Source: Promethearchaeota archaeon
Lineage (GTDB): Archaea; Asgardarchaeota; Lokiarchaeia; Sigyniarchaeales; SOKP01
Direction of reading: 5' to 3'
DNA: 35,239 nt
Assembly: GCA_008080735.1 (NCBI GenBank)
Contig: SHMW01000027.1
Location: 1 to 35,239, forward strand
In this document: one piece after another, positions 40-17,475 of the stretch
How the letters are laid out: the number at the start of each line of letters is the position of its first letter
Position numbering within the stretch: the first letter of the stretch is position 1
Made by a program: the position numbers and the translations under genes
The notes under the pieces: generated by a model
Told to the model about the DNA's origin: nothing
What the model saw: the letters and a program-made list of their open reading frames with translations, nothing else
Database searches by the model: none

Positions 40-573
40 ATGAGCCATAAGCGAGATTATTACCTGAAGGTAATTATTCTGGGGGAATCAGCGGTTGGAA
101 AAACAAGCTTGGTTCTCAGATTTGTTTCTAATAGATTTATGGAAGATTATCGTTCCACAATAGGTACCAACATCTATATGAAAGATGTTAAATTATCAAA
201 TGGGCACACATATAATCTAAATTTGTGGGATATAGCCGGGCAAGAACGTTGGGCAAGGATGAGACATAAATACTATAAAGGGGGGCAAGGGGCAATTATT
301 GTTGGAGATTTGACACGACCATCTACGTTTGACCAGATTAAAGATTTTTGGATCCCCGATCTAAGCAAGTTCCTTTCAGATATACCCATATTACTTGTCG
401 GAAACAAAAATGATTTGGACCAAACAATAACTTATGAAGAGATAGAAGATTTAAAAGACGAGATTGGTGCGATGTATAAAATAATAACTTCGGCTAAGAC
501 AGGAGAGAATGTTGAAACTGCTTTTAAAACGTTAACCCGAGAAATAATTAAAGAAAATAATAGAAAAAATTAG
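40..573 (+). CDS. Ras-superfamily small GTPase, Rab-like
   Basis: G1 GESAVGKTS, G2 STIG, G3 WDIAGQE, G4 NKND, G5 SAKTG; RabF-like YYKGGQGA; no C-terminal Cys prenylation motif. The 3' end overlaps the convergent dehydrogenase by 4 nt. Confidence 0.95.
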   Translation: MSHKRDYYLKVIILGESAVGKTSLVLRFVSNRFMEDYRSTIGTNIYMKDVKLSNGHTYNLNLWDIAGQERWARMRHKYYKGGQGAIIVGDLTRPSTFDQIKDFWIPDLSKFLSDIPILLVGNKNDLDQTITYEEIEDLKDEIGAMYKIITSAKTGENVETAFKTLTREIIKENNRKN

Positions 574-1761: not shown

Positions 1762-2451
1762 TTGGAAGTTGCGCAGGAAGAACATATTAAAGGAGGAGGG
1801 AAAATTCGGAGTTTCATTCTGGGATTTAACGACGGTCTTATTAGTGTCTTCACCTTATTGGTGGGTATTGCGGCTGCGACTTTAAGACAAGGAAATGAAT
1901 TTGTCATTTTAACCGGTATGGCAGCCCTCGTCTCTGGATCTATTAGTATGGGGCTCGGGGAATATATCTCATCAAAAAGTGAGGCTCAATATATTAAGAA
2001 TGAGATGAAACGGGAGAGAGCAGAAATCAAACTATTTCCTGAAGAAGAGGAAGAAGAGGTTAGACAGATTTTAATGAAATGGGGGCTCAAAGGAGAAACA
2101 TTGGAGGGAGCTGTTAACACGATCACTTCAGATACACAATCTTGGATCGATTTTTTAATTAAAAGCGAACTTGGATTAGAGGAACCTGAAAGTCCCTTGA
2201 TTGGAGGGGGAATAACATTCGTGGCATTTGTTCTTGGTTCGTTAATCACGTTATTTCCGTATTTTATTCCGATTGGATTGACTTCTCTTATAATATCATC
2301 AATAATCTCCTTTTCGATGTTATTTATCGTTGGGGGATTAAAAACACGGATAACCGGAGGGAGTTTTGTAAAAAGCGGCATAGAAATGGTAATAGTGGGT
2401 CTTATTGGTTTTTTCGTGTCATATTTCGTTGGAACGTGGCTCGAGCCGTAA
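1762..2451 (+). CDS. VIT1/CCC1 family Fe/Mn transporter
   Basis: ILGFNDGL, SMGLGEYISSKSE, acidic cytoplasmic metal-binding region (PEEEEEEV) and about 5 hydrophobic helices; TTG start. Confidence 0.92.
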   Translation: MEVAQEEHIKGGGKIRSFILGFNDGLISVFTLLVGIAAATLRQGNEFVILTGMAALVSGSISMGLGEYISSKSEAQYIKNEMKRERAEIKLFPEEEEEEVRQILMKWGLKGETLEGAVNTITSDTQSWIDFLIKSELGLEEPESPLIGGGITFVAFVLGSLITLFPYFIPIGLTSLIISSIISFSMLFIVGGLKTRITGGSFVKSGIEMVIVGLIGFFVSYFVGTWLEP

Positions 2452-2460
2452 AAAACAAAA

Positions 2461-2485
2461 ATTTTTTCTTTTTCTTTTTTATTTT
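2461..2485 (+). terminator. Putative archaeal oligo-T terminator
   Basis: TTTTTTCTTTTTCTTTTTTATTTT directly after the VIT1 stop, between convergent genes. Confidence 0.5.
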
Positions 2486-2514
2486 AATATGAGTTTATAA
2501 GGACTTAGACCCTA

Positions 2515-3366
2515 TTAAATCGGAATAATATCAATTTTCCCTTTTGTGCTGATAGAGCCAACCACCGTTGATACATGTTTAGAATAGGAGCGTGAGCTGA
2601 AGATACTAAACAATTTTTCATCGAAATATGTTTTACAACCGTTCTTAACCCTTTCGTGCGATCTTATAACATATTTAATCTTATTTTTATTGATGAAATA
2701 ATCAAAAGCTTCTTCCCCGAAGTGTTTAATTCCAGCTCCGCGACTATTTCTCTTGAATTCCTTTGAACTCCATCGAAATTCTTTAGGATCATTCCATAAC
2801 ATTTGTTTAATTACGGGATCTTTAATTTGTGTTTGATTGTTTGGCAAATCATTAATCTCATCAATATTCTCCAAACCTTCGGGAATTCCCCCGTGTAAAC
2901 AGAGAATATCATTCCAAGTTATCGCCGCTAATGGTAATTTAGAAAAGATTTGATTATATGCCCTAAAAAAAGTCTTGTTATCTTTAAATTTCAATCTCAC
3001 TTGATCGTAGAATCCATATTGTCGATTTATAATAGGATCTTCGTGGTTTCCCCGAAGTAAAATTATTCTATCTGGAATTATCTTTTTATAATAAAATAGT
3101 ACATTAATTACTTCAACTTGTTTGGCACCTCGATCGACATAATCACCTAAAAATAGAAGGATATCATAATCATCGCGGAAAAACTGTTGGATTATTTTAT
3201 GTAATGTTCCAAGATCTCCATGGAGATCGCCTACTACCATTATTTTGGCTTGAGGGATGAAGACAAGGTTTTTCTCTTCACCGAGAATCGTTTCCATATC
3301 CTTTATTAAGGATAGAATCTGGTCATTTGAATAGGTCTCAATTACTTTAAAGAATCTTTGGGGCAT
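2515..3366 (-). CDS. PPP-family Ser/Thr protein phosphatase
   Basis: GDLHG, GDYVDRG, LRGNHE, HGG, LWNDP, RGAG..FG, RSHE and FS motifs in canonical order. Confidence 0.95.
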   Translation of the reverse strand: MPQRFFKVIETYSNDQILSLIKDMETILGEEKNLVFIPQAKIMVVGDLHGDLGTLHKIIQQFFRDDYDILLFLGDYVDRGAKQVEVINVLFYYKKIIPDRIILLRGNHEDPIINRQYGFYDQVRLKFKDNKTFFRAYNQIFSKLPLAAITWNDILCLHGGIPEGLENIDEINDLPNNQTQIKDPVIKQMLWNDPKEFRWSSKEFKRNSRGAGIKHFGEEAFDYFINKNKIKYVIRSHERVKNGCKTYFDEKLFSIFSSRSYSKHVSTVVGSISTKGKIDIIPI

Positions 3367-4963: not shown

Positions 4964-7099
4964 TTAAGAATCCTTTGAGGTAAACTTAATATGCCCAACA
5001 CGCGGTTCATAGAGCGTTCCCTCCGTAACGAGCTCTGAGAGGGCATTTTTGATAAAGTCTTCATCCAATCCCTCCTCTAAATCAAGGATTTGAATTATAT
5101 TTTTCTTTTCCAGCATTTTCCAATTATTCTCTTCAAAAATTTCCTTCAATCTTGAAAGCAATTTGTCGAGTTTATTCAATTTACTTCTAGATTCTCCAAC
5201 AAAAATTCTATCCATATCAATTTTTCCTGTAGTTTTATCATAACCTGTGTCTTTAAGATATCGATCAAATAGTTGAATGATCGCATCTACATCTTCCTTT
5301 AAGACGTCTTCTCTAAGTGCCATCTTCGCATGTGCTTCACTTAATCTCACAAGAGCATCAAGATTTCGAGCTAATATAGATACTATCGCATCTTCACTAT
5401 CATATTCTCCTCTCAATTTCAAGTAAAACTCTTTTATCTGTTCTTTCGCCTCATTTGTAAGAAATGGACGACAATTTCTCTTCGCATATTTGATATATTT
5501 TTTAAGTAAATCGCCTGGAATGGGTGCGATAATTTTTTCCTCCTCAGAGGCGGTATCTGACTCCCTCATCGCATTTTCTAGAATAAATTCGGCCATCTGT
5601 GCATCGTCAGCCCTATTCGGGCGATCTATCACTACAAAAATAAGATCAAAGCGCGAAAGAAGGGAGGGAGGTAATCGTATGTTTTGAGTAGGCGTTTTAT
5701 AGATATCATATCGACCAGAATGTGGATTTGCTGCCGCGATAATTGCTGTTTCTGCTTTAAGAGTGGCAACAATCCCCGCTTTAGCTATACTAATCGTTTG
5801 CTGTTCCATCCCTTCGTGTAAAGCCGATCTATCCGCCGAGTCCATCTTATCAAACTCGTCTATCGCCGCAACACCGCCATTTGCCAATACCATGGCACCG
5901 GCTTCTAAATTCATCTGACCGGTATCAGCGTCCTTAATAACCGCAGCAGTTAATCCTACTGCCGTAGAGCCTTTTCCAGAAGTATAAAGCCCTCGAGGAG
6001 AGATTTCAACAGAGCTTTTTAAGATTTCCGATTTGCCAGTTCCAGGATCCCCTACAAAGAGTACGTGAATATCTCCACGTTTATATCCTCCCCCGGGCTT
6101 CTTTTTTCGCGTCCCACTAAATAAGCTCAGCGCACAAGCCATTTTAAGGTCATCTCTTCCATAAATTGTGGGGGCTAGTGAGCGTGCGATCTTTTTTTGG
6201 ATCATCGGCTCTTTGGCGAGTTTCTGTATCTCTTCTTTCTCCTCTTTAGTAATATCAATTTGTTCTTCACTTTTATCCTCTGGATCGATATAATTCACTT
6301 CCACGAATGTTTTGAAGAGAGTGGAATTATTACTTCTCATTGATGTAGCTAAAACAGAACGAAAAACACCCATAAGTTTAACTCGATCACCCGGCTTGAC
6401 ATAGTCGACTAACTCTTGAGTAAGGATTGCTTGAACCGATCGCGGAATTCTTCCTGCCGGTAGATCTTCAGGTACTTCTTGTATTGTAATACTCTGCCAA
6501 TCGATAAATTCAGATTTTTTAGTGATTAATCGAAAATCTGATTTTGCTTTTGCCTTGCAACGTTTATTCACGCAAAAACCCGGCCATTTAATTTTTGAAG
6601 TAAGCTGAATAACTTCAAAGGTGGCGCCACAAACAAGACATTCAAAGGTGGCTTTGGTGAGTTTTGGTCTAATTGTGGAACTTCGAATTGTGATTCCTTT
6701 TAACCAGACTAATTGATCTATATGTTTGGAGCGTAGTCCTCGAATAGTAACGCCTAAAGTGCTTTTTTCATCCTGAGAGGATACGCGCACAAAATAGTCA
6801 TCGTAGCTGAGTTTTCCTCCAGAAAGATATTTAAGGCTGTTTTTGAAAGCTTCGACAGCTTCGTCTAATAAGGCTTCGGGATCCTTTTTAAGCATTTCTG
6901 CGAGTTTTGGATCAAAAGATAAGAGATCTTCATAGGAAAAAACTAATGAATTTCTTCCTTTCGAATCAACTTCTTTGATCTGTTCATAATACTTATATTC
7001 TCCCGGAGATTCTTCAAAATGGCGATAAAAATCCTCAAATTTCTGAACTGGGTTAATGGGTGTAGAAGGACTTGATATAGGTTGGGTAATGATTATCAC
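4964..7099 (-). CDS. mcm: Replicative helicase MCM
   Basis: Zn finger CLVC...CVNKRC, Walker A GDPGTGKS, GLTAAV, Walker B IDEFDKM, AANP, arginine finger SRFD, C-terminal winged helix; no intein; GTG start uncertain. Confidence 0.98.
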   Translation of the reverse strand: MIIITQPISSPSTPINPVQKFEDFYRHFEESPGEYKYYEQIKEVDSKGRNSLVFSYEDLLSFDPKLAEMLKKDPEALLDEAVEAFKNSLKYLSGGKLSYDDYFVRVSSQDEKSTLGVTIRGLRSKHIDQLVWLKGITIRSSTIRPKLTKATFECLVCGATFEVIQLTSKIKWPGFCVNKRCKAKAKSDFRLITKKSEFIDWQSITIQEVPEDLPAGRIPRSVQAILTQELVDYVKPGDRVKLMGVFRSVLATSMRSNNSTLFKTFVEVNYIDPEDKSEEQIDITKEEKEEIQKLAKEPMIQKKIARSLAPTIYGRDDLKMACALSLFSGTRKKKPGGGYKRGDIHVLFVGDPGTGKSEILKSSVEISPRGLYTSGKGSTAVGLTAAVIKDADTGQMNLEAGAMVLANGGVAAIDEFDKMDSADRSALHEGMEQQTISIAKAGIVATLKAETAIIAAANPHSGRYDIYKTPTQNIRLPPSLLSRFDLIFVVIDRPNRADDAQMAEFILENAMRESDTASEEEKIIAPIPGDLLKKYIKYAKRNCRPFLTNEAKEQIKEFYLKLRGEYDSEDAIVSILARNLDALVRLSEAHAKMALREDVLKEDVDAIIQLFDRYLKDTGYDKTTGKIDMDRIFVGESRSKLNKLDKLLSRLKEIFEENNWKMLEKKNIIQILDLEEGLDEDFIKNALSELVTEGTLYEPRVGHIKFTSKDS

Positions 7100-7364: not shown

Positions 7365-10300
7365 TTACCCTTCAGTTAACCTATGAAGCACCCCACAAAT
7401 AGTTTCGTCTTGAGACATCTCACATCTGATTTTTAATAACGAGATTACACGTTTTTTGATTTCTTCTTCTTCATATCGAACTGTTCGTCCCAAAAGAATC
7501 GCTATGGAACGTTGGAGCTCAATAGAAAACTCATCGCTGAGATGTTTTAGTAATTTTGGTAAAAATGGGGTGATCCCCTTTTGTCGAATTATTTCATCCA
7601 TTGAATTGATCATTCGGTTTCGCACATTCTCAGAGGGGTCTTCCAGTAAATCAAAAATCTCATCAAAAATGTTATCAATATCAACTTCTACATACCGCTT
7701 TAGTAATTTTGCTGTTGCTTCCCTCACATTTTCGTTTTCATGTTGGGTATTGTTCTTGATTATTTTAAATGGTATTTCAGACGGTTTTAGTTCTTTAATT
7801 TCAGAGAGCAGGTTGATAGCCGATCGCCTAACCCATGTTTCCTCATCATCAAGTAGGGAAATTAATTTTTTAATAACAAAATCTTTATTTTTTATCTGAG
7901 CAACTATTTTTCCCAGAGCGTTAATTGCTGCTTCTCTTACAATCCAATCCTCATCTGAAAGAGCTTCGTTCAGTAAAGCGTCTACTGCGTCTTTATAATT
8001 TTCTGAAAGTGCCCCTATTTTCCCGATCATTTTAGCCGCAGATTCACGTATGAATGAGTCCTGTTCTGAAAATAATTGTATGGCAGAATCAATTGAGATT
8101 AGATTTGGGTTATTTTCGGCAATTTCCGAGAATGATTTGACTAGAGTTATTTTTACTGAAGTCTCTTGTTCATCAAACACCTCTAAAAATTCATTTATTA
8201 CAGGTTTTATGCTTTGAGGATCTTGTTTTGCAATTTTTGCCAAGATCTTTGATGCTTCCTTTTTAATTCCCTCTTCTGAAGTAGTTTTTAAAATTGATAA
8301 AATTCGTTTTATATCAATCTGATCTGAATATTCATCAGCTAAACCTTCTAAAGCCGAAAAAACATTTAATTGGATATCTTTATTTTCCGATTCAGATAAT
8401 TTGATTAATTCGGGTATAATTTTGTCAGGATAAGATTGCGCCATTTTAATAAGCGTACGAGAGATGATCCCTTTAGAAACGAATCTTGAGACGTCTGGGA
8501 TTTTTACTAATTCAGATAAAATTAATTTAGGATCATATTTCGTTTTTTCCACTAGTATTTGGGAGACTTTACTTTTTATATCTACACTATCAACTTTGAT
8601 AAAATCTAAAAGGATATTTAGAATTTCCTCTTCATTTTTTCGCCACATATTTCCTAATACTGATATAATGCTCAATAGTGAATCTGTATCCCGCTTATCT
8701 ATTTTATTAATGATATTTTTGATGTCGATAGCTTTCGGTTTTTCTTTGAAATATTTACTGATTGCAAACACCGATGCTTCTCTCAATTTTGGATTTTGGC
8801 TTGAAAGACCATCTAAAATGGGAGGGATTGGGATTGAATATTTTTTAAAATTACCAAGATTACCTAGAACCTCAAAAATTGCAGCTCTGACTAAACTTGA
8901 AGGATCTCTCATCAATGGAATTAAATTTGGGATTAATTCAGAATCAAACTCATCAAGCTTAAAATTTTTTAAATTTTTAATCGCAGAAGCTCTAATTTTT
9001 TTATTGGGATGATTTATTTTATTAATAATAAGATCGATGGGAACCTTATAGGAGGTTTTTGATAAAATATTTAAAGCCTCAACTTGGATCTTGTTTTCAG
9101 GATCGTTTAATAAGCTTTGGATATTTAAGTTATCCATTCCTACGTCTACTTCCTTAATCAAACGGGAAATTGCTTTCAGAGAGATCAATTTTAATCTCCA
9201 TTCAGGATCCTCAGTTAATTCGGTTAATAGTTTGATAGGGATCAATTTTAGAAATGAAAAATTGGTCTCAATTAAAGACTGTGCAATTCGGATACTTTTA
9301 TCATAATTCGGTGATCTCAATTCTTCAATAACCCACTGCTTAATCTTTTCCGGCGCTTCATCTTGAAGCATCAAAAAAATTTTATAGCTTACTTCTCTCA
9401 CTTTAGGATCATCATCACATAATCCATCTAATAGTTGGTATTTGATTTTGATATGGTCTATATCAATATCAACTTTATGAGGAATTCTCTCGTACATTTT
9501 AATTAAGGCTTTTTGAGCATTTTTACTAACTTCCGGGTCGCTACTTTTAAGATAATTGAATAATGGAACCGGATCGAAAGTTTGGGCATACTGGTTAATT
9601 TTTGAAAATTTTAAATTTATATTAAACTCGCTTTTCCTTGAGAGGAAATAATAAGAAGTAAACGTGATAAGTACAATTTCTTCTATAACTGCTGGAATTG
9701 CAAATAATATGGAGTTAGGGGGGATAGTTGCAGTAAATACCCATGAATTAAAGGTTTCTGTCAATTTATCGATATTTACAATAAGAAAATTCACAAGAAC
9801 ATTAATCCCCACAGCAGCCATTAAATATGCGGCAAAGAATACGTCTATTCCTCTATACTGGATTTTTCTACCCCAAAATCGTGTAAAATATCCAACCACT
9901 CCAAACAAAAGAGTGACAAACACCATTCCCGAGTAAGAATAAGTCGAGATCGCAAGAGAACCAGTTGCTAAGAAACCCAAAGTCTGGAACATTGATATCC
10001 ATTGCCATACAAATACAAACAACATCAAACCTAAAGTAATATATGGAAAAGGATCATCGATAAATTCATCCATACTTCTTTTAGAATCTTCATATCCTAG
10101 AAAAATTGATCTTTTCATATCTGGAATATGGATAAAAGCATTCGTGATTCCCGCAATGTATCCTTTAGCACCGAAATATGTGAGAATCATCAATGGATAA
10201 ACTAAAAACCAAGTTGACCATATCATAATAAAAGGAACTCCTGCAAGAGTTATCAATAGCGGAGGGACAACAAAAATCAGAAAATAAACACCCAGAGAAA

Positions 10301-10724
10301 TAAAGAGTGAAATAATTTTTGAATTAATTCTATTTATTACTTTTTCTCCGAGAATTCTATGAAATATTGTTAATCCTTCTTTCGATTCAGATGAAATCGC
10401 AATATAAATAAAATCAATTAAAGGATAAAGGGAGATATAAATAAGGCAAACAGAAAGGGGGATTAGAAGTACTAATTCATTAATTTTTTCAGGTGGGTTT
10501 ATCCCCATTGTCCACAAATCCGGAGATTTTATTGCAAATATGAACGCCATCGCAACTATTATTATTACAGCCATACTAAAGATTAAACCATAGAAAATAC
10601 AGAGCAAAATTTCTTTATATGACAATTCACCTTTTTTGACTAAAGCAACCTGCTTATAGATGATATAAAATCCGATTAGGACAAACACGGCAAAAATTAT
10701 AGCTAATAGTATCTCAGCAATCAC
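7365..10724 (-). CDS. Multi-pass membrane protein with long C-terminal HEAT-repeat solenoid
   Basis: About 9-10 hydrophobic helices in aa 1-360, then many HEAT units (DDDPKVRE, DPEWRLK, DPSSLVRAA, DSFIRESAA, DEDWIVREAA, DEETWVRRSA, DPSENVRN). Confidence 0.85.
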   Translation of the reverse strand: MIAEILLAIIFAVFVLIGFYIIYKQVALVKKGELSYKEILLCIFYGLIFSMAVIIIVAMAFIFAIKSPDLWTMGINPPEKINELVLLIPLSVCLIYISLYPLIDFIYIAISSESKEGLTIFHRILGEKVINRINSKIISLFISLGVYFLIFVVPPLLITLAGVPFIMIWSTWFLVYPLMILTYFGAKGYIAGITNAFIHIPDMKRSIFLGYEDSKRSMDEFIDDPFPYITLGLMLFVFVWQWISMFQTLGFLATGSLAISTYSYSGMVFVTLLFGVVGYFTRFWGRKIQYRGIDVFFAAYLMAAVGINVLVNFLIVNIDKLTETFNSWVFTATIPPNSILFAIPAVIEEIVLITFTSYYFLSRKSEFNINLKFSKINQYAQTFDPVPLFNYLKSSDPEVSKNAQKALIKMYERIPHKVDIDIDHIKIKYQLLDGLCDDDPKVREVSYKIFLMLQDEAPEKIKQWVIEELRSPNYDKSIRIAQSLIETNFSFLKLIPIKLLTELTEDPEWRLKLISLKAISRLIKEVDVGMDNLNIQSLLNDPENKIQVEALNILSKTSYKVPIDLIINKINHPNKKIRASAIKNLKNFKLDEFDSELIPNLIPLMRDPSSLVRAAIFEVLGNLGNFKKYSIPIPPILDGLSSQNPKLREASVFAISKYFKEKPKAIDIKNIINKIDKRDTDSLLSIISVLGNMWRKNEEEILNILLDFIKVDSVDIKSKVSQILVEKTKYDPKLILSELVKIPDVSRFVSKGIISRTLIKMAQSYPDKIIPELIKLSESENKDIQLNVFSALEGLADEYSDQIDIKRILSILKTTSEEGIKKEASKILAKIAKQDPQSIKPVINEFLEVFDEQETSVKITLVKSFSEIAENNPNLISIDSAIQLFSEQDSFIRESAAKMIGKIGALSENYKDAVDALLNEALSDEDWIVREAAINALGKIVAQIKNKDFVIKKLISLLDDEETWVRRSAINLLSEIKELKPSEIPFKIIKNNTQHENENVREATAKLLKRYVEVDIDNIFDEIFDLLEDPSENVRNRMINSMDEIIRQKGITPFLPKLLKHLSDEFSIELQRSIAILLGRTVRYEEEEIKKRVISLLKIRCEMSQDETICGVLHRLTEG

Positions 10725-10851
10725 GGGATTTCACAAAAGTAGTAATTTATTAAATAATTAAATATAATTTCTAATTTCTATTTGTTATAATGCATTATGT
10801 TTACAAAATAAAAAATATAATTGAATTATAAAAAGCTATTGAAATAGAAAT

Positions 10852-11406
10852 TTGTTAAAAATTAAAGAAGATTTAGAGGAGTTGCTAACCAGAACGAATT
10901 TTGTTTTCAAGCATTCAGAAATATTAACAGAATGTGTAAAAGATTACAAAGGTTTTTCCCTCTTAAATATGAAAATTGGTCCTTTTAAACGAGGAAAGAA
11001 CTACAAATTAAAATTCTTCATAGCAGTCCCATTAATAAAAAAAAATATATTGATATTATCACCTCAAGAGAAATGTGATAACATCGTTGTTCAAAGATAC
11101 GCAATAAGTGAAAGAGATGATCGCAGACTAAGAGAGATTGATGAAAAGAACTTTCTGAATAAAATTAAGGAATTTAAACTTTTTATGGAAAAAATGATTG
11201 AAGATGGAACTAAACCAAAATCAGATTTAGATAAATTCAATTCATATAAGGCTAATATTATAGATAGTCGTTTATTAAAATTACTTAGATTAGCTCGCAC
11301 TGAATTGTCTGTAGCAGATGAAAGAAGATTAACAAATTCCGAGCGGATATTAATTAGTAAGATTTCAGAATTAATACATAAATGGAGAGGGTTTTATATT
11401 CAATAA
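10852..11406 (+). CDS. gins23: GINS complex subunit, Gins23 (Psf2/Psf3-like)
   Basis: N-terminal beta B-domain (IGPFKRG...KFFIAVPLIKKN), then helical A-domain ending R.LKLLRLA...LTNSE..L...I...I.KWR; lies near mcm. Confidence 0.75.
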   Translation: MLKIKEDLEELLTRTNFVFKHSEILTECVKDYKGFSLLNMKIGPFKRGKNYKLKFFIAVPLIKKNILILSPQEKCDNIVVQRYAISERDDRRLREIDEKNFLNKIKEFKLFMEKMIEDGTKPKSDLDKFNSYKANIIDSRLLKLLRLARTELSVADERRLTNSERILISKISELIHKWRGFYIQ

Positions 11407-11416
11407 AAATAGACAA

Positions 11417-12106
11417 TTAGTATATTAGTTTTAATTTCTTTACTCCATATTCTAAAAAGTATTCCTCAACTTTTCGTGCAATTTTTTGGTCGATTTTTGT
11501 TTTTTGATAAATTTTTGGTAGGAGTTCTAAGGCATTACTCATTGAATAATATGGGATGTCTTTTGTATTAAGTATCTCCTCTACTGTTTTACCGTCAGGT
11601 CTTATTTCATCCCGATTAGTTAAGCTTATCGTAGCGGTAATCTTTATTTCTAATTCTAAAAATTTGTCAACAACTTCAATTAAAGATTGTCCAGTAGTGG
11701 TCACGTCTTCTAGAATAATTAAATTCCCCCTCGGTACGCCTAAATAATATCTGTCTTTAAGTTGACCGTGTTTCTTTGGGGCTCCGCGACCCATTGATAA
11801 AATAAATTCACCTTCTCCATAATCATTTTGTGATTTAGCCCATTTAAATTGCGTAATCAATCCAATTTTAGTGGCTCCTTCAGGCACTCCAAAAAAACAC
11901 TTTGGTTCTAAATTTAATTCTTTTACATATTTTATAATAAAATCTGATAATTCATCTGTTAAATATACATCAGCAACAATATCTCTCCAATTGACGTACC
12001 AATAGGAAACTCTTCCAGATTTTAAGGTGATTGGTTCTTTAAAAAAACCAATAACATTATTATCTATAACAAAGTTGGCAAATTTTTCCCTTATATTATG
12101 AATCAT
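11417..12106 (-). CDS. pyrE: Orotate phosphoribosyltransferase
   Basis: ITLKSGRVS.WYVN, KKHG loop, PRPP-binding IILEDVTTTGQS; overlaps the upstream ORF by 4 nt (ATGA). Confidence 0.9.
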   Translation of the reverse strand: MIHNIREKFANFVIDNNVIGFFKEPITLKSGRVSYWYVNWRDIVADVYLTDELSDFIIKYVKELNLEPKCFFGVPEGATKIGLITQFKWAKSQNDYGEGEFILSMGRGAPKKHGQLKDRYYLGVPRGNLIILEDVTTTGQSLIEVVDKFLELEIKITATISLTNRDEIRPDGKTVEEILNTKDIPYYSMSNALELLPKIYQKTKIDQKIARKVEEYFLEYGVKKLKLIY

Positions 12107-12621
12107 TTACTATCACGGAATTTAATATATTCTTTTCGTGCTTTAGCATATTCTTCTGCACTTATCTTACCATCCATAAATAAGTCTTCCTTTTCTCGCA
12201 TAATCTTACGCTTTTCATTTAATTTTTTCCGTCTTTCTTCTCTTCTAAATAATTCTAAGATTCCATCTGCTAATGTTTTAATATCTTTATTTTCTTTTTT
12301 CAGCAAATTTTCTAAGTAAGGTTTAATAGGTCTCGCCAAGTCTAAATTTTCATTTGCAATTTTATCTATTCGTTCTAAAGCATTGAAAATCTCTTCATTA
12401 TCCTCTCCTTCCAATACCTCAATTAATCTTGGAATAGCAACATCCTCCATTATTTCATCTAAATATTTCTCAACAGCTTTCCTTACCTTCTCATCGTCAT
12501 AAGTATCCAATTTGTTATTTCTAATGTATTCAATAAAAATTAATGGAAGCTCGATTGACCATTCTTGCATTTTTTTTTTATCAATTAATTGTACGATCCC
12601 TCCATCTTTTTTGCGAAACAC
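12103..12621 (-). CDS. Hypothetical protein: two HEAT-like repeats, coiled coil and C-terminal SHOCT-like motif
   Basis: AIPRLIEVLEGED..., IKPYLENLLKKENKDIK..., DGKISAEEYAKARKEYI; SD-like GAGGTGA upstream; coupled to pyrE. Confidence 0.7.
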   Translation of the reverse strand: MFRKKDGGIVQLIDKKKMQEWSIELPLIFIEYIRNNKLDTYDDEKVRKAVEKYLDEIMEDVAIPRLIEVLEGEDNEEIFNALERIDKIANENLDLARPIKPYLENLLKKENKDIKTLADGILELFRREERRKKLNEKRKIMREKEDLFMDGKISAEEYAKARKEYIKFRDSK

Positions 12622-13842: not shown

Positions 13843-16800
13843 TTAATTTAATTTCCAAAATTTCTTTCCTTTGTTAGATTTTACAACAACTTTTTCTTTT
13901 CTTTCCAGTTCTTTTAATTTTACTTGTAAAAGTCGAGCATCTAGCATATCTTTTATTCTCATCTTAAAGATTAAATCTTGAATATTTTGCCATTTATTTT
14001 CTTCCAACGCTTCTAAGATTGCCTCGTTAGTGATAACAGGTAACTTTTGCTGTCTCGTTTTTGAGGGCATTGGTGGGGCTTTTACTTTTTTCTTCCTCTT
14101 TTCCTTTGTTATTTTTTGGGGTTTTTCTACTACTTTCTCTTTTTCCTTTTCTTTTTCTTTGACACCCACCGCGATTTGAATAGTTTCAATTATTTCTGCT
14201 TTTCTTGCACGGGAAGGTAAATCCACATCCTTTTTGTCGGCAATGCTCTTTAATTCCTTTACTGTATAATCGTCGAGGTTTTCGAAATCGATTTCTTCCC
14301 TTTTCTCTTCTTCTCTTTCTTTCTCTTTTTCTTTTTTCTTTTCTTCTTTTTCTTCCTTCAATTCAATGGAATCTTCAATAGTCTCAATTATTTCTGCTTT
14401 TCTTGCACGTGAAGGTAAATCCACATCCTTTTTGTCGGCAATGCTCTTTAATTCCTTTACTGTATAATCGTCGAGGTTTTCGAAATCAACTTCTTCCTTT
14501 TTCTCTTCTTCTCTTTCTTTCTCTTTTTCTTTTTTCTTTTCCTCTTTTTCTTCCTTCAATTCAATGGAATCTTCAATTGTATCAATTATTTCTGCTTTTC
14601 TTGCACGTGAAGGTAAATCCACATCCTTTTTGTCGGCAATACCTTTTAATTCCTTTACAGTATAATCTTCAAGATTTTCAACGTCAATTATTTCTTTTTC
14701 TCTCTCTTTCTTAATCTTTCTCTTTTTAGAAATCTTTTCTCTAAGATCTTCGCTGATTTGGGGTCTTTCCTTCCTAATTGGTGTTTTCATTAATTTTTCG
14801 AGTTCTTCTTTCGAGATCTCATCTTTATAATTACTACCTTCTTGAGCAATATTATACAGACTGCTGACAAATTTAGGAATATATTTTTCAATCAAGTTGG
14901 CTCGTTTTTCTTTTTTCCGTATTTTCGCCCGTCTGTTGAGATAAACTCTTAATCTTCTCCCGATAGCTTCTAAACAATATTTGATTTCATTTATAAGATC
15001 CTCATCATCAGCAAGTGCGTTTTTGGATTGGGATTTGAACATTAAATGCACGTAAGGTCCAGATACATTCACCAGTAATTTAATTGGGCCTTTAGGTAAG
15101 CCATTATCAAAACTATCTAAATTATAATTTTTCCAGTTAACAGCTTGAACAGCCTTCGTTATTGCACAATCCGCAGTGTCTCTCAATTTTGGTGTTCTAT
15201 TAACAAATCGAGATAACACATCTCGGGAACGTTTAGGTACTTCTAATTTATTTGCATAGGCAAGGACACCCTCAACAATATATGCCAATCCTTTACCACT
15301 CGTCGGATCCCGCGTTTCCGCTGCTACAAAATCATCCTCTCTAGTGAAGTTTTCTACAAAATATTCAAAAACTTGTTTATAATCTATTTCTTCTGAAGTT
15401 TCTGAAAGTTCTAATAAAGAGTGCAAATCTTGTGAATACCCTTCTGGCTCAAAATTGTCGTTTTCTAGTAAAAATTGTGATAAAATCTTCGAATTGAATT
15501 CTATCAATTCCTTATCAGTTAATTCAGTATTCTCTAAATCTTCTTCGCTAATTTCTGGGTTTTCCCCCAATAGACGTTGTTTTTTGCGTTTTAAAGCGCT
15601 CCTTGTTGAGGTTTTAAGATCTTCAACTGGTGTTCCAAAATCATCCAAATTTTCTGAAACTTTTAATCCCAATTCCTTTATCAGTGTATTTTCTAATACC
15701 ACATCACCAACGGGTACGACGGTATCTGTGGGAGGTGACATATATTTTACCGACTTAAAGGCAAAAAAGAGAGAATTAAATTGATCATTTGTAAGATCTT
15801 GTGGTCTTGCGTCCGAAATTTTTACTTCTTCTACCAAATCTTCAAAATCTCGAACTTTCTTCTTCGTTTTTATCTCTTCTAATCCTGTTTTTTGATCTTT
15901 AAAAATCTTATTTAGATTAGCTCTCAGACTGTCTTTGTCATCCCTTATTGCATCTATCTTCCTTCTGAGTTTTCTCACGTCCCTCTTGATTTTTCTCTGT
16001 TCTTTTTTTGTGTCTGCTTTTTGGATTTTTGTTTTAAATTTTTTAATCTTATCTGTAATTTCATCAATTTCATCGTTTAAGTCTTGATATTTTTCAATCT
16101 CGTTCCAATATTGCTCTTTAATTTCATCTGATTTCACTTCATATACAATTAATTTATCTCGTGGCCTTGATGACCTTCCATATACACGTTTTTCATATCT
16201 AAGAAAATATATATCATCGCTTTTCTTCTTAACTTTCTTAAGAAATCCAGTATCTAGAATTAAAAGATTTAGTTTGTCTTGAAGATCTCGTTCTGCCAGC
16301 TCCACGACTTCCTTGGCCGTGTTGTAGCTCATACGGACAAAATTATCCTGTAAAAATGAAGTCAATGATAAATGTTCTGATTTTCCTAATAAATCTTGAA
16401 GATCACCTATATTAGTTGAGGATGGATGGGGTTTTGCATATTTTGGCTCTGCTGGAAATGAGGAAACCTTTCTTGGAAAGATATATTCTTCGTCGTAAGG
16501 GTCTATATAAATTATTGTTACGTGAGGATTCATTAGGGCCGTTTCTTTCACATAGGTATCTACATAACCTCTGACATATTTTATATTAAGATAATTGAGC
16601 TTAATATAGGTACCATGTAGGAACGGGACATCTATTTCGGTGGGATGGACCACATACCTTTTTTCGTTTTTTGAAGTAGTAAAAAATTCAGAAGCTGTCG
16701 CATAGAGATTATCCGCTGTTTTAGAAACGGCAACAATGGGTTTTCCAGTAGTATTTTGAGAATCACTAAATGCGCTTGGTGCTCCAAAACCTTGACTTCC

Positions 16801-17475
16801 TCTGGTTTGCTTTAGCTCAATACTTTTGGAAGAGGCAAGATATTTCCCATATTTTTCAACATCTACCTTAGCCATTCCCAATCCATTATCAAATACTTCA
16901 AATTTATAACTCATAACATTTTTAGCATCTATTTCTCCAGTTAATAGTGAATGTGCTTCTGATTCTGTCAATCTCATAATAACAATGGGCTCTTTATCAA
17001 TAATTTTTATATTATTGACTGGCGCTATTAAACTTTCCATGTCTCTTATAAGATTTTTTACTTCAATTTCTTCAATCTCTTCCTTTTTTTTAGGCTTCGG
17101 TTCTTCTTTCTTGGGTTTTTCTCCCTTTGGCTTTTCTTCCAAAATGCTTTTTGATTGTGGGCGTATCTCCCCTAATAAGGTTCGTTTAGCCTCATCATCA
17201 AGTTCATGAGAATCCTCCTCCTCAACTTCTTTTTGGAGAACCGAAAAGTTCTCTAAAAAGATTTCCTGATCTAATGTGTATGCTATACTAGAATCTTCCT
17301 TCTTAAGTTCTGACCATTGGAATGTTTCTATTGCGTCAAGAGCATTATCTAAGAATTCTGCGGCATATTGTGCATGCTTCCAATATCCGAACTCAAACCC
17401 AACTAATTGGGTTCTTTTGCGCATGAACTGTGCGATAGTACCTTGTGTTATCCGTCCTTCCTCTTCAGTAGTCAT
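13843..17475 (-). CDS. top6B: DNA topoisomerase VI subunit B, greatly expanded (1210 aa)
   Basis: GHKL motifs EFLDNALDA, DNGLGM, QTRGSQGFG, HGT; KETALMNPH, KPHP, SPPT, RFVNRTP, FKSQSKNALA; adjacent to top6A. Confidence 0.95.
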   Translation of the reverse strand: MTTEEEGRITQGTIAQFMRKRTQLVGFEFGYWKHAQYAAEFLDNALDAIETFQWSELKKEDSSIAYTLDQEIFLENFSVLQKEVEEEDSHELDDEAKRTLLGEIRPQSKSILEEKPKGEKPKKEEPKPKKKEEIEEIEVKNLIRDMESLIAPVNNIKIIDKEPIVIMRLTESEAHSLLTGEIDAKNVMSYKFEVFDNGLGMAKVDVEKYGKYLASSKSIELKQTRGSQGFGAPSAFSDSQNTTGKPIVAVSKTADNLYATASEFFTTSKNEKRYVVHPTEIDVPFLHGTYIKLNYLNIKYVRGYVDTYVKETALMNPHVTIIYIDPYDEEYIFPRKVSSFPAEPKYAKPHPSSTNIGDLQDLLGKSEHLSLTSFLQDNFVRMSYNTAKEVVELAERDLQDKLNLLILDTGFLKKVKKKSDDIYFLRYEKRVYGRSSRPRDKLIVYEVKSDEIKEQYWNEIEKYQDLNDEIDEITDKIKKFKTKIQKADTKKEQRKIKRDVRKLRRKIDAIRDDKDSLRANLNKIFKDQKTGLEEIKTKKKVRDFEDLVEEVKISDARPQDLTNDQFNSLFFAFKSVKYMSPPTDTVVPVGDVVLENTLIKELGLKVSENLDDFGTPVEDLKTSTRSALKRKKQRLLGENPEISEEDLENTELTDKELIEFNSKILSQFLLENDNFEPEGYSQDLHSLLELSETSEEIDYKQVFEYFVENFTREDDFVAAETRDPTSGKGLAYIVEGVLAYANKLEVPKRSRDVLSRFVNRTPKLRDTADCAITKAVQAVNWKNYNLDSFDNGLPKGPIKLLVNVSGPYVHLMFKSQSKNALADDEDLINEIKYCLEAIGRRLRVYLNRRAKIRKKEKRANLIEKYIPKFVSSLYNIAQEGSNYKDEISKEELEKLMKTPIRKERPQISEDLREKISKKRKIKKEREKEIIDVENLEDYTVKELKGIADKKDVDLPSRARKAEIIDTIEDSIELKEEKEEKKKEKEKEREEEKKEEVDFENLDDYTVKELKSIADKKDVDLPSRARKAEIIETIEDSIELKEEKEEKKKEKEKEREEEKREEIDFENLDDYTVKELKSIADKKDVDLPSRARKAEIIETIQIAVGVKEKEKEKEKVVEKPQKITKEKRKKKVKAPPMPSKTRQQKLPVITNEAILEALEENKWQNIQDLIFKMRIKDMLDARLLQVKLKELERKEKVVVKSNKGKKFWKLN
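14180..14680 (-). repeat. 198-bp (66-codon) near-identical tandem repeat, about 2.5 copies, inside top6B
   Basis: TCAATTATTTCTGCTTTTCTTGCAC recurs at 14186, 14384 and 14582 (period 198). Encodes ENL(E/D)DYTVKELK(G/S)IADKKDVDLPSRARKAEII three times, with K/E-rich linkers. Confidence 0.97.

Follow-up and report, generated by a model that had tools for sequence, protein, structure and literature searches.

What does a protein do that carries a polytopic membrane domain at one end and a very long array of HEAT repeats at the other, and whose gene lies between those of the replication proteins Gins23 and MCM? The question is raised by a stretch of 35,239 nucleotides from a Promethearchaeota archaeon (contig SHMW01000027.1 of assembly GCA_008080735.1), the whole of which is referred to here as the window. 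We call the protein TM-HEAT (TM, transmembrane). The present study reveals that it is a two-module integral membrane protein, composed of a domain of nine TM helices and a cytoplasmic HEAT solenoid. Two aspects are new, namely an undescribed family of membrane domains under a HEAT scaffold and an unexpected, conserved link to replication genes. The gene and its parts, as given by the list of open reading frames (ORFs), AlphaFold2 (AF2) models and profile searches, are as follows.

7365..10724, minus strand: the whole TM-HEAT gene, with its stop codon at 7365-7367 (ORF list, translation).
9642..10724, minus strand: N-terminal domain of nine TM helices, residues 1-361, of an undescribed family, predicted N-out/C-in (AF2 helices, hydropathy, positive-inside count).
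9843..9884, minus strand: cytoplasmic basic loop between TM7 and TM8, residues 281-294, T-R-F-W-G-R-K-I-Q-Y-R-G-I-D (conservation profile).
9789..9803, minus strand: the N308-x3-N312 pair in TM8, conserved intramembrane polar residues (residue counts by divergence group).
7368..9629, minus strand: cytoplasmic HEAT alpha-solenoid, residues 366-1119, about 20 repeats (Pfam, AF2, Foldseek).
7740..8189, minus strand: HEAT segment of the prokaryotic alphaRep/PBS-lyase type, residues 846-995, with D..W.VR motifs (family profile against PDB sequences).

The ORF is uninterrupted, starts with GTG and encodes 1119 amino acids (aa), and its coordinates reproduce exactly those of an earlier interpretation of this DNA from its letters (hereafter, the sequence-only reading). 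Homologues share the start position, using GTG or TTG, and carry a conserved Shine-Dalgarno-like GTGAAA motif about ten bases upstream of the start codon. The annotated start is probably correct, and weak. At window positions 10715-10760 and their equivalents in loci L001-L016, GTG or TTG starts follow a conserved (C)GTGAAA(A)T throughout the family. This suggests deliberately weak translation initiation and, therefore, a protein of low abundance. Neither Pfam nor NCBIfam detected an enzymatic domain in the 1119 residues, and the absence of a recognisable one had been proposed from the letters as well.

Two AF2 models agree on nine TM helices (residues 2-30, 36-66, 84-110, 136-160, 165-198, 226-254, 261-286, 292-326 and 335-361), besides which short cytoplasmic helices are modelled at 120-130 and 203-223. 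A Kyte-Doolittle scan confined the hydrophobic segments to the first 360 residues. Of the 9-10 helices envisioned earlier, nine stand and a tenth does not. The full-length model was built from 67 sequences (mean predicted local distance difference test, pLDDT, 85.4; predicted TM-score, pTM, 0.53) and the model of the TM domain alone from 18 (pLDDT 67, pTM 0.68). Since the loops on one side carry on average 21.3 Lys+Arg in 18 homologues and those on the other side 2.7, the N-terminus is predicted to lie outside, and the C-terminus with the HEAT arm in the cytoplasm. In the full-length model a linker of four residues separates the end of TM9 (residue 361) from the start of the first solenoid helix (residue 366). 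Because the solenoid starts almost directly at the cytoplasmic end of TM9, the attachment of the arm to the inner face of the membrane is probably fairly rigid.

The membrane domain is the better conserved of the two modules (0.58 against 0.50 for the arm on an entropy scale), with a mean column identity of 72% in 18 homologues. Near-invariant among these are Y100-P101-D104-F105, G188-G192, R282-F283-W284-R286-K287 and A345-I347-E348-E349. The sequence-only reading had pointed to YPLIDF, GYIAG, RFWGRK and PAVIEE as polar intramembrane motifs; all four are present and conserved, but RFWGRK belongs to the cytoplasmic loop between TM7 and TM8. Nowhere in the protein is conservation higher than at this loop (residues 281-300), which follows the pattern (R/K)282-(F/Y)-W284-x-(R/K)286-K287-x-K289 ... 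D/E294. W284 is invariant, and R/K282, R/K286, K287, K289 and D/E294 are retained even in the most distant members and in a form fused to leucine-rich repeats (LRR). Elsewhere, the positions kept in the most divergent members are mainly Gly, Pro and aromatic residues, plus a few polar ones. The polar positions kept family-wide are D/E104, where TM3 meets the cytoplasm, N308 and N312, which sit a helical turn from each other in TM8, R205, and E/Q348 in TM9. Residue counts by divergence group found no Cys, Ser or His conserved family-wide in the TM domain, which argues against a nucleophile-based enzyme. Given its higher conservation relative to the arm and the polar residues retained within the membrane, the TM module may have a role beyond anchoring, such as oligomerisation, sensing or the passage of an ion or small solute.

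Searches for a known relative of this module gave none. Pfam returned no family at E<=10 for residues 1-380 in any of 18 homologues, NCBIfam no match at E<=1, and a TM-domain profile no match among PDB sequences at E<=10. The best Foldseek match in PDB, with the pLDDT-67 model as query, had E 0.24 and a TM-score of 0.2. Look-alikes in the ESM Atlas scored at best 0.80, at a recognition below benchmark, and belonged to no named family. An identity with the major facilitator superfamily (MFS) was rejected at the level of sequence, as the Pfam, NCBIfam and PDB profile searches gave no match. The 12-TM two-half architecture of that superfamily was rejected as well: only nine TM helices are present, and hhalign gave a probability of 0.2% between the N- and C-terminal halves, that is, no internal repeat. 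MFS chains appeared in Foldseek at E 0.8-1.3 and TM-scores of 0.11-0.19, again with the weak pLDDT-67 query, and none stood in the top rows of VIA-align. Some public records of homologues (P0090, P0199, P0030) are named 'MFS transporter' or 'MFS family permease', a label that is unsupported. A TLC/NTT nucleotide transporter (PF03219) gave no Pfam match on the TM domain at E<=10. Intramembrane proteases of the CPBP/PrsW type (EExxxR, FxxxH, HxxxN/D) were also dismissed: after E348-E349 the sequence continues I-V-L-I and so lacks the Arg, distant members have Q in place of E348 and do not keep E349, neither H122 nor H199 is conserved throughout the family, and Pfam matched neither family at E<=10. 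The domain thus appears to represent a family absent from the databases; the TM-only model is too mediocre to decide whether its fold is novel.

A comparable architecture is known from bacteria, where TLC/NTT-HEAT and MFS-HEAT fusions join a polytopic N-terminal membrane domain to a long cytoplasmic HEAT array, and where the HEAT arm of TLC-HEAT fusions has been proposed as a regulatory or sensor domain. TM-HEAT shares this architecture. In contrast to those fusions, it has nine helices, no internal repeat and no TLC or MFS match at E<=10, occurs in a single archaeal order, and has gins23, not transport genes, as its linked neighbour.

The arm itself comprises 754 aa (residues 366-1119), in line with the roughly 750 aa of HEAT repeats estimated earlier. 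It is recognised by Pfam HEAT (PF02985, 141.9 bits against a cut-off of 23.5, E 3.4e-43) and HEAT_2 (PF13646, 142 bits against 27.7, E 7.5e-42), and AF2 models it as a continuous two-helix superhelix of 43 helices in residues 366-1118 (mean pLDDT 85.4). Foldseek gave nothing convincing for the TM domain; for the arm it ranked CAND1, transportin-1 (karyopherin beta2), SF3B1 and importin-beta first (E 1e-13 to 1e-10; probability 1.00 for the first three). These proteins resemble the arm in their roughly 20 repeats and cargo-wrapping shape. In contrast to TM-HEAT, however, they are soluble, and the matches reach TM-scores of only 0.21-0.36 at 11-14% identity over 800-1100 aligned columns. The importin-beta N-terminal (Ran-binding) domain was not among the best 25 (down to E 0.031) of 33 Pfam families matching at E up to 1; where karyopherins carry that domain, TM-HEAT has no significant match to it, and its N-terminus is a membrane domain. 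The models do not show common ancestry of the arm with CAND1, karyopherins or SF3B1.

In profile searches, designed alphaRep proteins match residues 846-995 at E 1e-67 to 1e-31, and NCBIfam gave weak matches in the arm to NblB (2.4e-10) and CpcE/F. The D..W.VR..A signature is common to this segment and to the alphaRep/PBS-lyase HEAT proteins NblB and CpcE/CpcF. The latter, however, are short and soluble with few repeats, whereas here such repeats make up a third of a membrane-fixed arm of 754 aa. One third of the arm is thus ordinary prokaryotic HEAT of the PBS-lyase type. The family profile also matched PP2A-A, AP-1/AP-2 beta, Integrator subunit 4 and CAND1 in PDB at E 1e-22 to 1e-15, and Pfam Adaptin_N (60 bits, cut-off 37) over residues 563-875 as well as Cnd1 exceeded their thresholds. 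Because part of the array is of the ordinary alphaRep/PBS-lyase type, the likeness to adaptins, PP2A-A and karyopherins appears generic, and the eukaryote-like matches are best read as cross-matches among repeats and not as evidence of orthology.

How widely the protein occurs was addressed with a TM-domain profile in 400 genomes of the phylum. The window's own family is denoted f1, and f2, f3 and f4 are other families of its GTDB order, given as Lokiarchaeales. Matches were found in 142 of the 153 genomes of this order (f1, 123/134 plus the window's own genome; f2, 1/1; f3, 14/14; f4, 4/4), in 0 of 7 genomes from other families of the same class and in 0 of 240 from the rest of the phylum. 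The match-less genomes of the order are mostly incomplete (10 of 11 at 61-84% completeness; G194, 94%), and one carrier is a complete genome of 6,035,313 bp. In f1 there is usually a single match per genome. The TM-domain search gave 250 matches, the best 120 of which are nearly all 1102-1143 aa long and 57-84% identical over the TM-domain query. Among 1.84 billion representative proteins, a profile search matched 71 clusters, nearly all full-length ones being 1110-1290 aa; named sources were archaeal, and bacterial homologues were absent from that set. For one homologue (P0151) the submitter gave Bathyarchaeota as the source, possibly through an error in binning or labelling. The arm alone found in sister lineages only HEAT proteins of about 200 aa, which match the alphaRep-type segment (E 1e-7 to 6e-13); for a HEAT-only orthologue outside the order, such weak partial matches were all that was seen. 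Thus, the phyletic check proposed from the sequence places the family in one archaeal order, where it is near-universal, and both modules appear to be an innovation of that order. A known MFS or TLC domain with PBS-type repeats of broad bacterial homology had been named as the outcome that would speak against a scaffold; we found no MFS or TLC match at E<=10 and, among the 1.84 billion representative proteins, no bacterial homologues.

The main new finding concerns the genes around TM-HEAT. Those nearest to it are the following.

10852..11406, plus strand: gins23, the head-to-head neighbour, 184 aa (profile against PDB, NCBIfam).
10725..10851, no strand: AT-rich spacer of 127 bp between the divergent gins23 and TM-HEAT, a presumed bidirectional promoter region (sequence).
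4964..7099, minus strand: mcm, the co-directional downstream neighbour beyond a 265-bp spacer (adjacent only in the window's own family).

A profile of 12 Gins23 neighbour ORFs matched 9moj_C (3.3e-11), PSF2 8ouw_B (6.7e-10) and 3anw_B (9.8e-6) in PDB, and the NCBIfam Gins23 model matched the neighbour at 2.9e-7. The window gene is the best match to the Gins23 model in its genome, the sole other match having E 0.19. By its sequence, the 184-aa neighbour is a true Gins23/PSF2 homologue. In the spacer, TATA-like runs and the GTGAAA before the start codon are conserved in an alignment of 11 loci.

In public genomes, tblastn synteny showed that 18 of 18 f1 loci keep the window's order wherever the contig reaches: CoaBC, top6B, top6A, a 172-aa HEAT-like ORF, pyrE, gins23 on the opposite strand, then TM-HEAT and mcm in the same direction. 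The mcm gene adjoins TM-HEAT in 16/16 f1 loci reaching past the gene and is gone from the f2 and f3 loci; in the f2, f3 and f4 loci checked, mcm, pyrE, top6A/B and CoaBC are no longer nearby. The head-to-head arrangement of gins23 and TM-HEAT is found in 18/18 f1, 1/1 f2, 8/8 f3 and 1/3 f4 loci, and persists where TM-HEAT is 23-33% and Gins23 17-28% identical to the window's proteins. The gins23-mcm pair is among the most conserved replication gene pairs of archaea. Four Asgard genomes without TM-HEAT have gins23 beside mcm; in three of them the two genes run in the same direction, and in the fourth they are 3 kb apart. TM-HEAT therefore occupies the middle of an older gins23-mcm pair. An Asgard replisome survey (PMC12680538) names neither this protein nor any HEAT or transmembrane partner.

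Paralogues of TM-HEAT (1172-1221 aa, one or two per genome) occur in f3 and f4, and none was found in the window's own genome. In 10 of 10 loci the paralogue is directly preceded, in the same orientation, by a gene for a 260-aa protein that contains two DUF4332 domains, and the gap between the two genes is -1 to +1 bases in the four loci with mapped ORFs. DUF4332 has a helix-hairpin-helix-type fold, with side matches to TfoX_C and HHH_5. No paper in the searchable library describes the TM-HEAT family or the function of DUF4332. In a maximum-likelihood tree of TM domains, the sequences linked to gins23, in which all four families are represented, form one clade and those linked to DUF4332 another, the split having 99/99 support. 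Since related genomes share labels, this tree shows persistence of each pairing, not co-evolution. The window genome has only two DUF4332 genes, tandem and unlinked to TM-HEAT (G000 contig 16; L047:1322-2116 and 2355-3164, plus strand). Their products have isoelectric points of 4.5-4.8 and two DUF4332/HHH domains each (HHH_5, E 1e-37), and the genes adjoin a VIT1 gene and a BcrAD/HGD-D cluster. In two metagenomic proteins a homologous TM module is fused to LRR (hhalign 96%, E 3.5e-9); a search for such forms in 154 genomes of the order matched only LRR parts. The TM module is thus used with two kinds of protein-binding solenoid, HEAT and LRR.

The sequence-only reading had expected, in general terms, either a scaffold tethered to the membrane or a gated transporter, and the anatomy described above fits that view. 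Tentatively, we prefer a possible reading of TM-HEAT as a membrane-fixed scaffold for replication or chromatin proteins, with a TM module that does more than anchor. It is favoured because two subfamilies each keep a neighbour of a nucleic-acid-related fold, and the arm resembles the cargo-wrapping superhelices CAND1, transportin and importin-beta. The HEAT arm would serve as a dock, on the inside of the membrane, for DNA-replication or chromatin proteins. Candidate partners would be Gins23, and hence the MCM-GINS helicase complex, in the gins23-linked subfamily, and the helix-hairpin-helix (DUF4332) protein in the paralogous one. The TM module could contribute oligomerisation, sensing, or an ion or solute path via D/E104, N308, N312 and E/Q348. 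The partners, their physical binding and the role of the TM module are what we infer. A sharper version holds that TM-HEAT tethers the replicative helicase complex (via Gins23) or chromatin, its gene having arisen within the ancestral gins23-mcm operon at the root of Lokiarchaeales, with the sister subfamily tethering a helix-hairpin-helix DNA-binding protein; we consider this version unlikely. Eukaryotes hold chromatin and replication factors at membranes through LEM/HeH proteins of the inner nuclear membrane and membrane-associated Rif1. The proposed job would be alike, DNA machinery being held at a membrane, though the analogy comes from gene neighbourhood alone, and TM-HEAT has no sequence or fold relationship with these proteins.

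Several observations weigh against such a scaffold, and some of them count in favour of other explanations. The link to replication is one of gene order only, and the compared loci are kin within one order, so that a divergent pair could persist for regulatory or historical reasons. Within the f1 block the unrelated pyrE and CoaBC are equally syntenic, and in one f4 genus (L040, L057) the pairing with gins23 is broken and the TM-HEAT gene retained. These facts agree with a general membrane scaffold unrelated to DNA, serving for instance membrane-protein quality control, cytoskeleton or envelope organisation or signalling, its place beside gins23 being an accident of the gene's origin that a shared promoter region has preserved; HEAT arrays, after all, bind many kinds of partner. 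We regard this as rather unlikely, since two independent subfamilies keep a nucleic-acid-fold neighbour while all other neighbours turn over, and the junction of -1 to +1 bases between DUF4332 and paralogue suggests co-translation and a complex. The DNA binding of the DUF4332 partners, in turn, is deduced solely from helix-hairpin-helix likeness, and several copies are acidic. The charge of the arm ranges from near neutral to mildly acidic, apart from one basic stretch, and points to no partner, and the charge analysis of arm and partner proteins was uninformative. The relative placement of the two modules in the model is also uncertain, because its pTM is only 0.53. Finally, a domain of nine TM helices so conserved exceeds the needs of a tether and favours an intrinsic membrane activity.

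The last point leads to a HEAT-regulated transporter or channel, in which the TM domain would conduct an ion or small solute, possibly nucleotide-related, and the arm would act as regulator or sensor. The higher conservation of the TM domain and its intramembrane D/E104, N308, N312 and E/Q348 agree with it, the pairing of one TM module with either HEAT or LRR is in keeping with an unchanging effector and exchangeable sensors, the modules could be coupled through the short rigid linker, and pyrE is nearby in f1. This idea nevertheless appears doubtful: there is no sequence match to any transporter family and no inverted or direct internal repeat, a typical feature of secondary transporters; transporters do not usually have an odd number of TM helices or lack conserved charged pairs; and the adjacency to pyrE is lost outside f1. 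A further proposal, raised by the sequence-only reading, was a proto-coat or a PP2A-A-like platform, and it involves two more genes of the window.

2515-3366: a PPP-type Metallophos (Pfam), 4 kb from TM-HEAT.
40-573, plus strand: a Ras-family small GTPase (Pfam Ras, E 2.8e-46).

TM-HEAT would here be an adaptin-like trafficking scaffold, or a platform for the PPP phosphatase and a Rab-like GTPase, both 4-7 kb away. The above-threshold Adaptin_N match (60 bits against 37, residues 563-875) and the profile matches to AP-1/AP-2 beta and PP2A-A (about E 1e-19 to 1e-21) speak for it, and Asgard catalogues (PMC9834061) list an 'adaptin N heat repeats domain' among trafficking signature proteins. These matches, however, are ordinary HEAT cross-matches, the strongest being of the alphaRep/PBS type. 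Those to AP-1/AP-2 beta, PP2A-A and Integrator subunit 4 (E 1e-18 to 1e-21) cover generic HEAT units over 200-280 residues, with no conserved partner genes in the loci examined. An adaptin test scored the Adaptin_N trunk and found no appendage domain and, in the loci examined, no medium or small subunit genes; nor did Pfam give a significant match to an appendage domain, a beta-propeller or the importin-beta N-terminal domain. The PPP gene is absent from every f2, f3 or f4 locus that was checked, and among the fetched loci the GTPase occurs only in those of f1. Where the GTPase is conserved, in nine f1 loci, it follows mcm and not TM-HEAT. A role as PP2A scaffold A, judged by linkage to PPP as a proxy, was rejected on these grounds. 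Because neither linkage is conserved and the adaptin and PP2A matches are generic, the proto-coat or PP2A-A-like platform is unsupported and, in our view, highly improbable.

The neighbours that had been named from the sequence (PPP-type Metallophos, Ras-family GTPase, MCM, Gins23 and the 172-aa HEAT-like ORF) are all real, and some further features of this neighbourhood may be recorded. In the nine f1 loci (L006-L011, L014, L015, L017; at about 13.6-15.8 kb) the GTPase gene lies directly after mcm in convergent orientation. In the window five genes separate the two (ADH, VIT1, PPP phosphatase, a 270-aa ORF and rubrerythrin), a stretch that looks like an insertion of about 4.3 kb. On the other side of TM-HEAT lies the small HEAT-like gene.

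12103-12621, minus strand: the 172-aa HEAT-like ORF between top6A and pyrE (sub-threshold INTS1_R4, E 0.0033).

This ORF is kept in f1 (42-78% identity) and missing from the loci of other families. TopoVI-B (window 13843-17475, minus strand) is 1210 aa long, lies in the block conserved across f1 and, close to residues 1001-1048, has Rho_N/HeH/SAP-like modules (Pfam Rho_N 3.5e-12, HeH 6.5e-12). In other families of the class, the mcm ORFs with gins23 beside them measure 1218 and 1680 aa (L062:4198-7854 and L063:219-5261, both minus strand), and their tblastn matches to the window MCM are split in two or three pieces, as expected for an intein-containing mcm. A consistent downstream partner of TM-HEAT was sought and rejected, as the ORFs of about 520 aa found there are a mix of 4-alpha-glucanotransferase, NAT10/TmcA-like, phosphorylase and no-match proteins. 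In three f3 genomes a 516-535-aa ORF without significant Pfam match lies convergent after the gins23-linked TM-HEAT (L031:7284-8876, L033:11976-13583, L036:12412-13962) and could represent a conserved neighbour specific to that family.

Asgard archaea share alpha-solenoid scaffolds, among other features, with eukaryotes, and to our knowledge no Asgard alpha-solenoid scaffold has an assigned role. Three sources make only general statements on Asgard solenoids (PMC9834061; bioRxiv 10.64898/2026.10.28.762692; bioRxiv 10.1101/2020.10.19.343400). TM-HEAT is near-universal in the order that holds the cultured Asgard archaea, and single-copy in the window's own family. Even if the scaffold hypothesis fails, a new family of membrane domains that pairs with interchangeable HEAT or LRR solenoids would stand. 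The hypothesis itself is concrete: it concerns how replication or chromatin may be attached to the membrane in the prokaryotes most closely related to eukaryotes. If true, the tether would be an archaeal system that fixes replication or the chromosome to the cell membrane via a karyopherin-like solenoid. Chromatin anchoring at the nuclear envelope would then have a functional forerunner, or an analogue, in cultured relatives of eukaryotes.

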